A DNA stretch of 26,133 nucleotides from an uncultured Eubacteriales bacterium. Its GTDB lineage: Bacteria > Bacillota > Clostridia > Christensenellales > Aristaeellaceae. Positions 4,861 through 26,115 of the stretch are shown here, piece by piece (the first letter of the stretch is position 1; each line of letters opens with the position of its first letter). The notes below the pieces were generated by a model, which did no database searches, was not told the origin of the DNA, and saw only the letters and a list, made by a program, of their open reading frames with translations. Where the stretch lies: the NCBI GenBank assembly GCA_944353735.1, contig CALVPU010000215.1, positions 1 to 26,133 of the forward strand. The letters are read 5' to 3'. Made by a program: the position numbers and the translations under genes.

Positions 4861-4918
4861 ACGATTGACAGGTCCCCGCATTTGCGAGGGCCAACCTGCA
4901 AATGGAGGAACGCTGACC

Positions 4919-5923
4919 ATGATGATGAGAAAGCTGCTGGCGCTGGTACTGGCGCTGGCGTTGGCGCTGAGCGCGTGCGCGCTGGCGGAGGAGCCGGTGG
5001 TCGAGGATGTGCCGCTGGCGACCGCCGCGCCCGACGAGGATTTTGACCTCTCCGGCGTGCTCGACGAGGAGATCCTCGCCGACGAGTTCATCTCCGTCGA
5101 GGACTATGCCGAGACCGAGAACCTGCCCGACGACTGGTGGAACATCCTGCTGCTGGGCACCGACAACCGCTATGAGGGCAATACCTACGGCAGGACCGAC
5201 TCAATGATCATCCTCTCGGTCAATCCCGCCACGCTCGAGGCCAAGCTGACCTCGCTGATGCGCGACACGTGGGTTTCGATGTACGGGCGCAGCAGCAAGG
5301 CCAAGCTCAACGCCGCCAGCGTCTACGGCGGTCCGGAACTGACGATGCGCACCGTCAACGAGTGCTTCGGCATGAACATCTCCGACTACGCGCTGATCAA
5401 CATCACCGGCCTGGCGGACGTGATCGACGCCCTCGGCGGCATCGAGCTCGACGTCACCGAGGAGGAGCGCGCCGCGCTCAACCGCGGCCTGTTCGACCTG
5501 TCCTCGCAGTCCGGCATGGAGGAGCTGGAGGAGTCGGGCGAGCAGGTGCACCTCAACGGCAACCAGGCGGTCGCCTTCGCGCGCATCCGCCGCATCGACA
5601 GCGATTACAAGCGCACAGAGCGCCAGCGCGACGTGCTGACCGCCATCGCCGAGAAGCTGCAGGAGAGCAACAACGCCGCGACGATCGTCGGCGTGGTCAC
5701 GTCGCTGATGCCCTACGTCGAGACGAATCTCGATCTGGGCGAACTGATGACGCTCGCCTACGTCGGGCTGCAGCTGGACATGTCGAACGTCGAGCAGCTG
5801 CGCCTGCCCGCGGACGGCACCTTTGACGCCGGCACGTACAACGGCGTGTGGAGCATCCGCCCCAACTTCGACGAGAACAAGCAGATCCTCTACGACTTCA
5901 TCTACGGCGAGGACGAGGAATAG
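4919..5923 (+). CDS. LCP (LytR-CpsA-Psr) family cell-wall glycopolymer transferase
   Basis: NILLLGTD, GRTDSMIILS, SLMRDTWV, KLNAA, LNGNQAVAFARIR and SDYKRTERQR motifs. Start moved to ATG 4919 behind GGAGG. Confidence 0.93.
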   Translation: MMMRKLLALVLALALALSACALAEEPVVEDVPLATAAPDEDFDLSGVLDEEILADEFISVEDYAETENLPDDWWNILLLGTDNRYEGNTYGRTDSMIILSVNPATLEAKLTSLMRDTWVSMYGRSSKAKLNAASVYGGPELTMRTVNECFGMNISDYALINITGLADVIDALGGIELDVTEEERAALNRGLFDLSSQSGMEELEESGEQVHLNGNQAVAFARIRRIDSDYKRTERQRDVLTAIAEKLQESNNAATIVGVVTSLMPYVETNLDLGELMTLAYVGLQLDMSNVEQLRLPADGTFDAGTYNGVWSIRPNFDENKQILYDFIYGEDEE

Positions 5924-5959
5924 GCGCGCCTGCAAACGCCGCGGCGCGCGGAGAACGAA

Positions 5960-5998
5960 AAAGGGCGCTTTCACCATCATGCGGTGAAAGCGCCCTTT
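5960..5998 (+). terminator. Intrinsic terminator after the LCP gene
   Basis: 16-bp perfect stem AAAGGGCGCTTTCACC / GGTGAAAGCGCCCTTT followed by GTTGT. Confidence 0.85.
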
Positions 5999-6023
5999 GT
6001 TGTCAGAAATGCCCGCCGCGGCA

Positions 6024-6682
6024 GGATCGCCCTTCTCGTCGGCGGGAAGGTTTTTCCCATGGCGGCGAAGTGCCCTTCTCGCGGCAGTGCCGTTCCTGCG
6101 GCAGCGCTCTTCCCGAAGCGGAAATGCCTTCTTGCGGCGGGGGCGCTGTAGCGGTGATTTCAATCTCCGCGTTTCGTGAAGGATCGCCCTTCTCGTGAGG
6201 GGGAGCGACTCCGGCACACACATCGCCCCGGGGAGCGTGGGCATTTCAATCCACGCTGCCCGCGAGGGGAGCGACGTCAATTCCCGCGTTTGTGCAGATG
6301 TCAACGATCGATTTCAATCCACGCGCCCCGCGAGGGGGAGGGTTTTCTCATGGCGGGAAAGCGCCCTCTTGCGGCAGCGCCGTTCCCGCGGCAGCGCGCT
6401 CTTCCCGAAGCGGAAATGCCTTCTTGCGGCGGGGGCGCTGTAGCGGTGCTTTCATTCTCCGCGTCTCGTGGAAGAGCGACCTCCCCGCGAGGGGAAGGGT
6501 TTTCCCATGGCGGCGAAGTGCCCTTCTCGCGGCAGTGCCGTTCCCGCGGCAGCGCTCTTCCCGAAGCGGAAATGCCTTCTTGCGGCGGGAGCGCTGTAGC
6601 GGTGCTTTCAATCTCCGCGTCTCGTGAAGGATCGCCCTTCTCGCGAGGGGGAGTTTTTTCTCATGGCGGCGAAGCGCCCTTC
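6024..6682. repeat. ~157-bp tandem repeat tract (about 3.5 units) built partly from degenerate type I-C CRISPR repeats
   Basis: CATGGCGG anchor (ATG) at 6059, 6350, 6507 and 6663, giving periods 291, 157 and 156. The extra ~134 bp in the first period is the CRISPR mini-array. The tract sits between the convergent LCP and SGNH genes. Confidence 0.9.
6157..6340 (-). CRISPR. Orphan, degenerate type I-C-like CRISPR mini-array (2 spacers)
   Basis: Repeats on the plus strand: ATTTCAATCCACGCTGCCCGCGAGGGGAGCGAC (6243-6275, 33 nt), ATTTCAATCCACGCGCCCCGCGAGGGGGAG (6311-6340, lacks CGAC), and a degenerate fused repeat at 6157-6209 ending GAGCGAC. Spacers are 33 nt (6210-6242) and 35 nt (6276-6310). The reverse complement GTCGC...GCGTGGATTGAAAT matches the established I-C repeat pattern. 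No leader or cas genes are in the window. Confidence 0.75.
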
Positions 6683-6690
6683 GCTGCGCC

Positions 6691-7329
6691 TTATCCGATC
6701 AGCTTGCGGACCTCCTGGGCGAGCGCCTCGCCGAGGGCGCGATGCGAGGCGGCGTCCATGTGCACGCCGTCGACCGGCGAGGGTTCGGCGACCGTGGCGG
6801 CGTCGAAAAACGCCGCGCCCTGCGCCTGCGCCACGTGGCGGTAGTAGAAGGCGAACTTCTTGCTCTCCGCATAGCCGCCGCGCAGCGTGCCGTAGGGGTC
6901 GTCGGCGACCGACGGGTGCAGCTGGATCGGCGAGACCAGCAGCACCTTGAACCCGTTGGGGAACACCTCGCTGCTCTCCTTGCGCGCCTGCACGGCGCGG
7001 GCGAGGTCGATCAGGCGCTCGGCGCCCTTCGCGGCGCCAAAGGCGTCGGTGAACTTCAGGTCGTTCGTGCCCATCATCAGCACGAGCAGGTCCAGCGGCT
7101 TTTGCGCCACCAGCGCCATCGGCAGCGCCGCCGCGCCCAGCCGCCACGGGCTCCACGGGTCCTCGTAGACCGAGGTGCGCGCGTTCTGCCCGTCCTCGAG
7201 CACGCGGTAGCCCGCGCCGAGCGCCGACTGCATTACGCCCGTCCAGCGCGTGTCCAGATCGAAGCGCACGCCCGTTCCCGGCGTGTAGCCCCACGTGTTG
7301 GAATCGCCAAAGCACAGGATGTTTTTCAT
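6691..7329 (-). CDS. SGNH/GDSL-family hydrolase (arylesterase-like)
   Basis: ILCFGDSNTWGY (block I), EDGQNAR (II), MMGTNDLK (III), DGVH (V). Start at ATG 7329 behind GGAGG. Confidence 0.93.
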   Translation of the reverse strand: MKNILCFGDSNTWGYTPGTGVRFDLDTRWTGVMQSALGAGYRVLEDGQNARTSVYEDPWSPWRLGAAALPMALVAQKPLDLLVLMMGTNDLKFTDAFGAAKGAERLIDLARAVQARKESSEVFPNGFKVLLVSPIQLHPSVADDPYGTLRGGYAESKKFAFYYRHVAQAQGAAFFDAATVAEPSPVDGVHMDAASHRALGEALAQEVRKLIG

Positions 7330-7375
7330 AATAATGCCTCCGCCCCTTTGGGGTCTGTATTGAATCTCCAGATTG

Positions 7376-7404
7376 ATTATAGCCCATCGCGCGCGTGTGC
7401 GCAA
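7376..7404 (-). promoter_or_regulatory. sigmaA promoter of the SGNH hydrolase gene
   Basis: Minus strand TTGCGC-17 nt-TATAAT. Confidence 0.65.
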
Positions 7405-7613
7405 GATCCTGAGGGGATTTTATTGCCGTTCCGGCGCATCGAGCGACAACAGCCAGGCGCCAGCAAAGGATAAAAAGGGAATTCTGAAGAGAGAGGCTGG
7501 AAGCGTGACCGAACCACGCACGGCAGAGGCGTTCTCCATGGATGGGATATCACGGGCCAACCGCATTGTGTTGGCGGCGCCGGAAAGCACTGTCAGTATG
7601 CGGAGAAGGGCGA

Positions 7614-7763
7614 ATGCACGCGCCGGGCATGGCGCGAAATGTGCAGCGCGCACGGCAATGTGAGCGCAAAGCGCAGCTGCGCCGGTTCGTTGCATGGTTC
7701 TTCTTCCTCGCTGGCTGGCTCCTTGTATGGCAGCTTGTGGTCATTTTTGCGGGCACGCTTTAA
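7614..7763 (+). CDS. Possible small single-pass membrane protein (49 aa)
   Basis: GGAG lies 8 nt before ATG 7614. The product MHAPGMARNVQRARQCERKAQLRRFVAWFFFLAGWLLVWQLVVIFAGTL has a basic stretch then a ~22-residue hydrophobic helix. No family recognised. Confidence 0.3.
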   Translation: MHAPGMARNVQRARQCERKAQLRRFVAWFFFLAGWLLVWQLVVIFAGTL

Positions 7764-7828
7764 TGACGGGCAAGGCCGCCCCAAGAAGGGCGAAGAAGCG
7801 TTTCCCGGAGAGTGCCATGACAAGCGCG

Positions 7829-8689
7829 CTATTCGCCCTGTGCGCCGCTTTCGTATAGGTCTTCCGAAACGTGGCGTTGTTTGCGCAGTTCGATGTCGAT
7901 GAGGCTTTTATACATGGAAGGGGTGCGAGAAGTGATCTTCTTGAACACGGTGGCGAAATAGGCGGGCGACGCGTAGCCCAGCGCAGTGGCGACTTCCGTA
8001 ATCGAATAGTCCTGCGCGATCATCCGCTTGGCGAAGGCAATTTTGCGCCAATTTATGTAGTACATCGGCGTGACGCCGCTTTGGAGCACGAAGGTTCTTT
8101 TGAAATGCGAGAGCGAGCACTTGCTCAGCGCCGCCAGGTCCTGCAGGCAGATTTCCTCGGTAATGTGATCGTTGATGTATCGGAAGGCGATGTCGATGTT
8201 CGGCGCGCGCTGCGGCGACGCGCTTTCGATGAGGTCTTCAAGTGAGAACAGAAAGCGAATCAGTTCTCCCTGACCGCGCAGCCGCAAACGGGGCTGGCTC
8301 GTGGTGCAGAAGCGCAGCGCGTCAGTCAAAATTTCCGCGAGAAGCGCGTTCCCATGATAGCGATACGCGTTCAGGGACAGCAGGTAGGCGCGAATCGACC
8401 TGGCTGTGGAAGGCGACAAACCCAGCAGCGGATGTTCCTCGCCGGAAGCGATCTTCAATTGAAAATAGGTGTGCTTGTACTGCGGATGATTTCCGGTCGA
8501 ATACCGCGCGCGGGGCGGAATGACCAGCAGATCTCCACCGCTGAAGGAGAGCTCCGTCTGATCGACGCGGTAAATTTGAATCCCCTTGGTGATCAGGCGC
8601 AATTCAATGCAGTCTTCGTTGCGCTGCCGGGGAAGCGGATTTGTTGAATGCTCGATGCACATCTGACCAAATGCCTTGACGCCTTCCAT
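7829..8689 (-). CDS. AraC/XylS-family transcriptional regulator
   Basis: Cupin-like N-terminus (IELRLITKG...GDLLVIPP) and C-terminal double HTH (LQDLAALSKCSLSHFKRTF; SITEVATALGYASPAYFATVFKK). The start is either ATG 8689 or TTG 8734. Divergent from the ABC operon. Confidence 0.92.
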   Translation of the reverse strand: MEGVKAFGQMCIEHSTNPLPRQRNEDCIELRLITKGIQIYRVDQTELSFSGGDLLVIPPRARYSTGNHPQYKHTYFQLKIASGEEHPLLGLSPSTARSIRAYLLSLNAYRYHGNALLAEILTDALRFCTTSQPRLRLRGQGELIRFLFSLEDLIESASPQRAPNIDIAFRYINDHITEEICLQDLAALSKCSLSHFKRTFVLQSGVTPMYYINWRKIAFAKRMIAQDYSITEVATALGYASPAYFATVFKKITSRTPSMYKSLIDIELRKQRHVSEDLYESGAQGE

Positions 8690-8904
8690 CGTTTTGCCCC
8701 ATTTCTCATTGTAAATTTGCGCAGAGGATTTCAAAATAATATTCCATACGAATATGGATGCCGGGAGGGGGAAACTGTGCTAGTATAACAGCAGAGAGCC
8801 CCTTAAAGCGAGGAACATTTCCTCATCAATACCATCATACCTTGCGGCGGGGGAGAAGTACAACCATCCTTTTGAAAAATGCGCGCAAATAGGAGGGACA
8901 TGCC

Positions 8905-25681: not shown

Positions 25682-26115
25682 ATTTCGTCATCCCGCCCGG
25701 CGGGAGAATTTTCCACCGCAGGGGCGCGGGGCGATTGACCATGCCGCGCACCTGCGGTGTCGGGGATGCCATTGTGGACGCGAGGGAAGGGTTCGACGGA
25801 TTTCGGCATCCCGCCCGGCGGGCGAACCTTCCGTCGCAGGGGCGCGGGGCGATTGCCCATGCCGCACACCTGCGGTGTTGGGGATGCCATTGCGGACGCG
25901 AGGGAAGGAGGGCGACGGATTTCAGCATCCCGCCCGGCGGGAGAATTTTCCACCGCAGGGGCGCGGGGCGATTGCCCATGCCGCGCACCTGCGCATGGTC
26001 GGGGATGCCATTGTGGACGCGAGGGAAGGGTTCGACGGATTTCATCATCCCGAGCGCGGGGGGGCGCCGCGATGGGAGGGAGGGGAGGCGACGGCGGATG
26101 CCGCACACCTGCGCA
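25682..26115. repeat. ~119-bp tandem repeat tract (3 full units plus a diverged partial), hairpin-rich, REP/BIME-like
   Basis: ATTTC..CATCCCG anchor at 25682, 25800, 25919 and 26039. Copy 1 has a 15-bp stem with one mismatch (25715-25729 / 25744-25758). The tract is directly downstream of the flotillin stop. Confidence 0.9.

Follow-up and report, generated by a model that had tools for sequence, protein, structure and literature searches.

Orphan arrays, degenerate terminal repeats and recombination between repeats are all well known among CRISPR loci (PMC8616872), and the part of that article which cites Shmakov et al. (2020) describes orphan arrays as frequent, reads them as signs of degeneration and counts some of them as functional. 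The locus described here is a small two-spacer array embedded in a tandem repeat, whose unit consists of a half repeat (H), a degenerate full repeat (D) and a non-CRISPR segment (S). With orphan arrays it shares its distance from the cas genes, decayed and truncated end repeats, genuine spacers and a cognate cas operon elsewhere in the genome, whereas it departs from them in carrying repeats that are fused without a spacer, are tandemly copied together with 107 nt of leader-position DNA and flank the surviving spacers. It is also similar to the known outcomes of repeat-repeat recombination, with allele differences that comprise whole modules, a duplicated spacer 1 and crossovers inside repeat homology; a comparable duplicated spacer is found on contig C164 of the same genome. 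The exchanged module measures 157 bp instead of the usual ~67 bp, because S takes the place of the 'spacer' that separates the repeat remnants.

Solitary repeat units and mini-arrays of viruses and mobile elements, for which a decoy role has been proposed (PMC8616872), likewise have one or two spacers and combine complete with truncated repeats, but our locus is not a mobile-element mini-array, since its neighbourhood is housekeeping DNA. REP/BIME elements are, like the unit, GC-rich, palindromic and intergenic, and an initial annotation of this DNA had spoken of a REP-like satellite. However, such elements are defined by many dispersed copies, and the unit is present at a single locus: all BLAST matches of the unit in the whole genome fell at 6023-6690, a DNA search of 40 relatives recovered ordinary arrays and the target of spacer 1 and not the unit, and scans of genome and metagenome collections returned 0 exact matches to the unit or to D. 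Because the copy-number test failed, the unit cannot be called REP-like. Moreover, neither of the flanking-gene orthologues adjoins an array or a unit in the congeners examined.

Neo-CRISPR arrays, said to have been described by Nivala et al. in 2018, reportedly arise from off-target spacer integration, and the small size, ectopic chromosomal site and imperfect flanking repeats of our locus are reminiscent of them. In contrast to neo-CRISPR repeats, which are duplicates of local sequence, the central repeat of the locus (R) is the canonical genomic repeat (30/33) and is not derivable from H.D; H.D lacks the canonical 3' half GCGTGGATTGAAAT that R possesses. As the central repeat is canonical and not a duplicate of local sequence, the locus is not a neo-CRISPR array. 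Our literature search for a CRISPR remnant amplified within a longer tandem unit, that is, a CRISPR-derived minisatellite, found no description of one. Since the component processes are known and the amplified-remnant form was not found described in this search, we file the locus as an unusual variant of orphan-array decay.

Setting and anatomy of the repeat locus

The window, by which we mean the whole stretch of 26,133 nt that was analysed, is contig C215 of a gut Clostridia metagenome-assembled genome (MAG) of 2.15 Mb, 65% GC and 284 contigs, whose host genus was judged from the closest relatives to be Candidatus Faecivicinus. The repeat locus fills a 767-nt gap separating two convergent genes, a LytR_cpsA_psr family gene on the plus strand (4865-5923; Pfam PF03816, E 3.7e-37) and a GDSL/SGNH hydrolase gene on the minus strand (6691-7329; Pfam PF13472). 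A bidirectional intrinsic terminator hairpin (5955-6003), recognized as inverted repeat I1 and by the terminator scan, is the sole predicted minus-strand terminator downstream of the GDSL gene. The neighbourhood consists of cell-wall, ABC-transport and AraC genes, and no mobile-element genes occur in the window. Scanning 5800-6900 with the Rfam covariance models gave nothing near the gathering score, only noise, and a coding explanation was rejected, as the open reading frames across the repeat region had no Pfam match and the spacing of 156/157 bp shifts the frame between copies.

Tandem repeats are common elsewhere in this genome, where 108 loci with a period of at least 50 bp, 20 of them touching contig ends, make up 1.44% of the sequence; these are unrelated and locus-specific. 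Both ends of the window itself lie in or next to tandem arrays (8-447 and 25682-26113; periods 149 and 118/239), with a similar 148-bp array on contig C14 and a similar 118-bp array on contig C57. A sample of 180 kb from five congeners, biased toward long contigs, held 2 non-CRISPR tandem loci with a period of at least 50 bp.

We read the locus on the minus strand, which is the crRNA sense given the orientation of the repeat on contigs C35 and C274. The locus amounts to 3.4 tandem copies, for which Tandem Repeats Finder and a second repeat-finding program gave a period of 156/157 bp with three full and two partial units. Each unit begins with a 17-nt H, which corresponds to the 5' half of the repeat, followed without a spacer by the 32-nt D and then by 107-108 nt of S, which is non-CRISPR DNA with a 17-nt sub-period that forms sub-arrays within each unit copy. 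The order along the locus is (H.D-S) x 2, R'-spacer 2-R-spacer 1, GTCG.H.D-S and a truncated H.D, so that tandem units stand on both sides of a two-spacer mini-array. The strings which the initial annotation had quoted as 32-nt degenerate repeats, at 6157-6188, at 6449-6480 and from 6605, are all present there, and the half repeats that it described as fused to them without a spacer were found at 6189-6205, 6481-6497 and 6637-6653.

Starting from the GDSL gene, a partial S (6654-6690, direct-repeat family D2) abuts the stop codon and is followed by unit A (6498-6653), made up of H_A (6637-6653), D_A (6605-6636) and S_A (6498-6604) and 96% identical to unit C. Unit B (6341-6497) comprises H_B (6481-6497), which forms a perfect 7-bp hairpin, D_B (6449-6480), which retains the 5' GTCGCTC, and S_B (6341-6448). 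The first array repeat, R' (6311-6340), is joined directly to S and has the true 3' two-thirds of the repeat, an H-like start and no 5' GTCG. Spacer 2 (35 nt, 6276-6310), without a protospacer match, separates R' from R (6243-6275), an intact 33-nt type I-C repeat that agrees with the main-array consensus at 30/33 positions and whose stem is weakened by one C-C mismatch. Directly after spacer 1 (33 nt, 6210-6242) come GTCG and H_C (H_C at 6189-6205), together the first 21 nt of a repeat (6189-6209; 10/10 for GTCGCTCCCC), and these are fused without a spacer to D_C (6157-6188), a degenerate full repeat with 22/33 matches to the locus repeat and the 3' end GATTGAAAT kept. Unit C continues with the 107-nt, non-CRISPR S_C (6050-6156), again with the 17-nt sub-period, and the locus closes with a truncated unit (6023-6049, direct-repeat family D4) composed of a degenerate half repeat, H0 (6032-6049), and the first 9 nt of D (6023-6031). 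All of these elements are on the minus strand.

On the plus strand, each half repeat together with the T-run following it resembles a terminator hairpin (6031-6055, 6326-6348, 6481-6503 and 6635-6659). Two of these four sites were flagged by the terminator scan, which made seven overlapping calls in 5800-7500 versus 2.0 expected, and we treated these terminator-like signals at the unit boundaries as a by-product.

Relation of the tandem unit to the type I-C system of the genome

An array with this type of repeat on contig C35 lies beside cas2, cas1, cas7, csd1/cas8c and cas5d, and the system is thus type I-C, as the initial annotation had proposed; cas3 was not among the confirmed genes because the contig ends there. 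This cas operon contig is distinct from our locus, and more arrays with the same repeat occur elsewhere in the genome. The stretch from cas2 to the main array on C35 is an unusually long leader region of roughly 1.5 kb, and a 207-bp tandem duplication (C35:802-1216, L002; 2.0 copies, 96% identical) is situated in it. At least four more short, decayed I-C mini-arrays are located off the cas operon (C164:413-556, C274:3188-3583, C270:1777-2000 and C21:1990-2090); the one on C164 has, besides its duplicated spacer, an end repeat truncated after the stem, and on C274 arrays abut in opposite orientations.

R, which ends in ATTGAAAT, is of the same type as the I-C repeats of this genome, and the two spacers of the locus have lengths of 33 and 35 nt. 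Spacer 1 is a genuine spacer: it matches a gene of congener G004 (L028 3079-3111) at 31/33 positions, with TTC directly 5' on the crRNA-sense strand, and TTC, the canonical I-C PAM, bears out the type I-C assignment. The target gene and its neighbours match phage tail families in PHROGs (Dit, tail protein), the target itself being in the 836-aa tail gene of a prophage. The contig in question, C108 of G004 (L028:953-6047), carries a prophage tail module composed of Dit, the 836-aa tail protein, which includes an amidase-like region, and another tail protein. No match was found for spacer 2 in 150 family genomes, nor for either spacer as an exact match in IMG/VR.

To relate H and D to CRISPR repeats, we used as reference the repeat of the true C35 and C274 arrays together with the central copy at 6243-6275; the 33-nt genomic repeat of the C35 and C274 arrays starts with GTCGCTCCCC and ends with GGATTGAAAT. 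D agrees with the reference in 22/33 columns, which is the best full-length match within each D+S stretch, and its score was reached by 0-3 of 200 dinucleotide shuffles. Sites as good as D number 140 in the 4.19 Mb of remaining genome, corresponding to 0.022 expected in 660 nt, and by match score alone the CRISPR identity of D would merit moderate confidence. D lies, however, on the same strand as the true repeats, and D_A and D_C retain the 3' GATTGAAAT / GATTGAAA. The match of H_B to repeat positions 5-20 is 15/16, reached by 0/1000 dinucleotide shuffles and by 0.08% of natural 157-nt windows, and H_C comes after GTCG exactly one 33-nt spacer beyond a true repeat (6189-6209). The three units are copies of one another and therefore count as one observation, not three. 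Since the matches exceed the shuffles and the genome background, and since their position agrees in strand, intact ends and register with spacer 1, H and D are repeat-derived. D was also considered as kin of the other decayed repeats in the genome, which was rejected, as its best partners were intact variant repeats.

The proposal that the unit is built from type I-C repeats consequently holds for H and D, which account for 49 of 157 nt or about a third of the unit, but as to repeat pieces in the remaining S it found no support. The sub-repeats noticed in S are real: its self-identity at lag 17 is 47% (z = 5.2, reached by 0/500 shuffles), and Tandem Repeats Finder agrees. They had been taken to resemble the half repeat, whereas the resemblance is to the derived H-D junction motif CGCGAGAAGGGC only (top-3 score, p about 0.005) and not to the true repeat, to either half of which S has no similarity (p 0.2-0.9); S as a stack of half repeats was rejected on this ground. 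An origin of S by leader duplication was likewise rejected, as S showed no similarity to the leader or trailer regions of the C35 and C274 arrays. Compared with the neighbouring terminator, S had no likeness beyond chance save that of S_B to a terminator arm (p 0.02). It could be that the junction motif of S invaded the repeat rather than the reverse.

Processing by Cas5d calls for a stable repeat hairpin with an 11-12-nt handle behind it. With regard to folding, the main repeat reaches -16.8 kcal/mol (z -3.4) and R -9.8 kcal/mol (z -0.4), while shuffled sequences fold as well as H.D; the repeat hairpin is lost from D, in which hairpin and handle are ~20 nt out of register. For the unit as a whole, folding is better on the plus strand (z -2.9) than in the crRNA sense (z -1.1). 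A conserved RNA gains no support from these predicted folds.

Natural alleles and probable reshaping of the array

Alleles of the same locus were retrieved from independent assemblies by exact flanking proteins, then aligned and parsed. Within the same species we found four structural alleles, which range from 1.4 to 3.4 units, have an S of 73 or 107 nt and carry 0, 2 or 4 spacers. The allele of L129/L135 has the 767-nt structure of the window with 1 nt different. In L130/L134 the gap measures 319 nt and holds no array; a single unit links the partial S with the truncated unit. Relative to the window, this gap is shorter by exactly 448 bp, the distance that separates the 96%-identical units A and C. 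The allele of L131 and L136 has a leader-side S of only 73 nt, without two of the sub-repeats, and a leader-side spacer (X) different from that of the window, for which no match was found in 60 family genomes; furthermore, a fusion at the microhomology CGCTCCCC joins the first 10 nt of a repeat to the 3'-terminal 20 nt of spacer 1. The fourth allele, in L133, stems from a different study, is located within a contig of 317 kb and has four spacers, namely spacer X, a remnant of spacer 1, and spacers 2 and 1. One full repeat of L133 consists of GTCG and the body of R' and comes after a spacer, and it is the product that would be expected of a crossover between GTCG.H and R'.

Two further observations concern the surroundings of these alleles. 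In L133 an unrelated insertion sequence (DDE_Tnp_1/DUF772; L133:3636-5192, ENA ERZ21563605 contig_51552) is inserted in the terminator hairpin beside the locus. An identical GDSL hydrolase protein adjoins a hexapeptide acetyltransferase gene in L131 (350-1658), whereas in the window (6691-8734) it is next to an AraC-family gene, suggesting rearrangement or exchange on that side too.

The locus is likely, in our view, to be a secondary type I-C array situated off the cas operon and owing its present form to slippage and unequal homologous recombination. In this scheme H would be the 5' stem-loop half of a repeat and D a decayed full repeat, and their fusion would have come about by a deletion that removed the 3' handle along with the spacer separating two repeats or, equally, by duplication of the first ~20 nt of a repeat. 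S would be unrelated DNA that precedes the first repeat, where a leader is expected, expanding and contracting by slippage of 17-20 nt, and the H.D fusion would have been duplicated and deleted along with this leader-position DNA via recombination between repeat remnants. Because H, D and the true repeats still share homology, unequal crossing-over could gain or lose whole 157-bp modules and move spacers. As parsed from their alignment, the alleles appear to show directly the three processes needed, namely microhomology deletion in the array, slippage of 17-20-nt sub-repeats and unequal crossing-over in H/repeat homology, and the suggestion in the initial annotation that an array had been 'collapsed and amplified' fits this series. 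We infer the order of the rearrangement events, with parsimony only setting their direction as deletion or insertion.

Since the scan predicted no terminator on the minus strand from the stop codon of the GDSL gene to 5998, transcripts of this gene could plausibly read through in the crRNA sense, and the repeat region may well be transcribed in this way. Spacer 2, and perhaps also spacer 1, may still be usable in trans by Cascade made from contig C35, and the units themselves are probably selectively neutral. As the leader-side spacers differ by allele, the array could still be acquiring spacers, and 'decaying' may be too strong a word.

Alternative explanations and significance of the locus

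The possibility of continued acquisition can be taken further, to a secondary array that is active, with S as a working leader, with Cas1-Cas2 from the C35 operon adding spacers at the S-R' junction and with the H.D-S modules as by-products in the form of duplicated leader-repeat cassettes. This would agree with the position of S, which immediately precedes the first repeat in all alleles that have an array, with a leader-side spacer that is spacer 2 in some alleles and spacer X in others although they have the distal spacer 1 in common, and with the apparently intact I-C adaptation module in the genome. However, fresh integration would duplicate the first repeat, and in all alleles the first repeat is without the 5' GTCG and internally unlike the second. 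Moreover, S is unlike the main-array leader, one allele is without the array entirely, and differential loss with recombination explains the differences between alleles equally well; we regard an active array as unlikely.

It is distinctly improbable that the tandem repeat came first, as an unrelated 157-bp repeat with a chance repeat-like motif into which a CRISPR fragment was spliced by recombination. Under such a history, the 15/16 match of H, the 5' GTCGCTC present in D_B and the 3' GATTGAAAT seen in both D_A and D_C would all have to be coincidental, and this on the right strand and in the right order. It could draw on the many unrelated tandem repeats of the genome, on the lack of CRISPR similarity in S and on the natural allele with a unit and no array, but this array-less allele is exactly what a crossover between units A and C would leave, given their 96% identity and their spacing of 448 bp.

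We think it very improbable that the H.D-S module is functional, with S serving as a leader with extra leader-repeat junctions, or with transcribed decoys that bind Cas5d or Cascade and tune I-C adaptation or interference. If this were true, the locus would be a chromosomal CRISPR-derived regulator with a copy number set by recombination. Hardly credible is the related idea that the H.D transcripts are decoys or regulators binding Cas5d or Cascade, or that the units are decoy sites for Cas1-Cas2 integration. The H of unit B does keep a stable hairpin and D the 3' handle sequence, transcription by read-through in the crRNA sense is plausible, and repeat-like decoy RNAs are known from viruses (PMC8616872). 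On the other hand, the hairpin and handle of D are displaced from each other by ~20 nt and folding is no better than in shuffles, the setting is housekeeping chromosomal DNA and not a mobile element, the locus is single and has no counterpart beside the flanking-gene orthologues in the congeners examined, and the alleles differ in copy number (1.4 to 3.4) and may have lost the array. Nor does anything at this locus point to mimicry of Cas5d or Cas1-Cas2 substrates, the alternative offered by the initial annotation, given the lost hairpin of D, the absence of the locus from congeners and the natural allele that has no array at all. An assembly artefact, in which the assembler joined a CRISPR fragment into a repeat, might be suspected in a MAG fragmented into 284 contigs, and repeats often end contigs, but it is ruled out by the alleles, since the same 767-nt structure, 1 nt different, is present in another assembly and a related array-plus-unit form lies inside the 317-kb contig from a different study.

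We thus return to the reading of the locus as a secondary type I-C array reshaped by slippage and unequal recombination, in favour of which we also count the proneness of this genome to local tandem duplication, with its 108 loci, and the presence of other decayed mini-arrays. The locus is a recombination by-product confined to one site, and not a new satellite family or a shown regulator, and it reveals no new defence or regulatory mechanism. Its value is that of a worked natural example of CRISPR array decay with multiple alleles, along a route in which microhomology deletions fuse repeats to repeats or spacers and the remaining homology of the remnants drives unequal crossing-over. In this manner a repeat remnant and the DNA next to it can become a local minisatellite. 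The example is useful to curators of CRISPR predictions, because loci of this kind resemble arrays with 107-nt 'spacers', and it bears on the origin of orphan arrays and of some intergenic tandem repeats.
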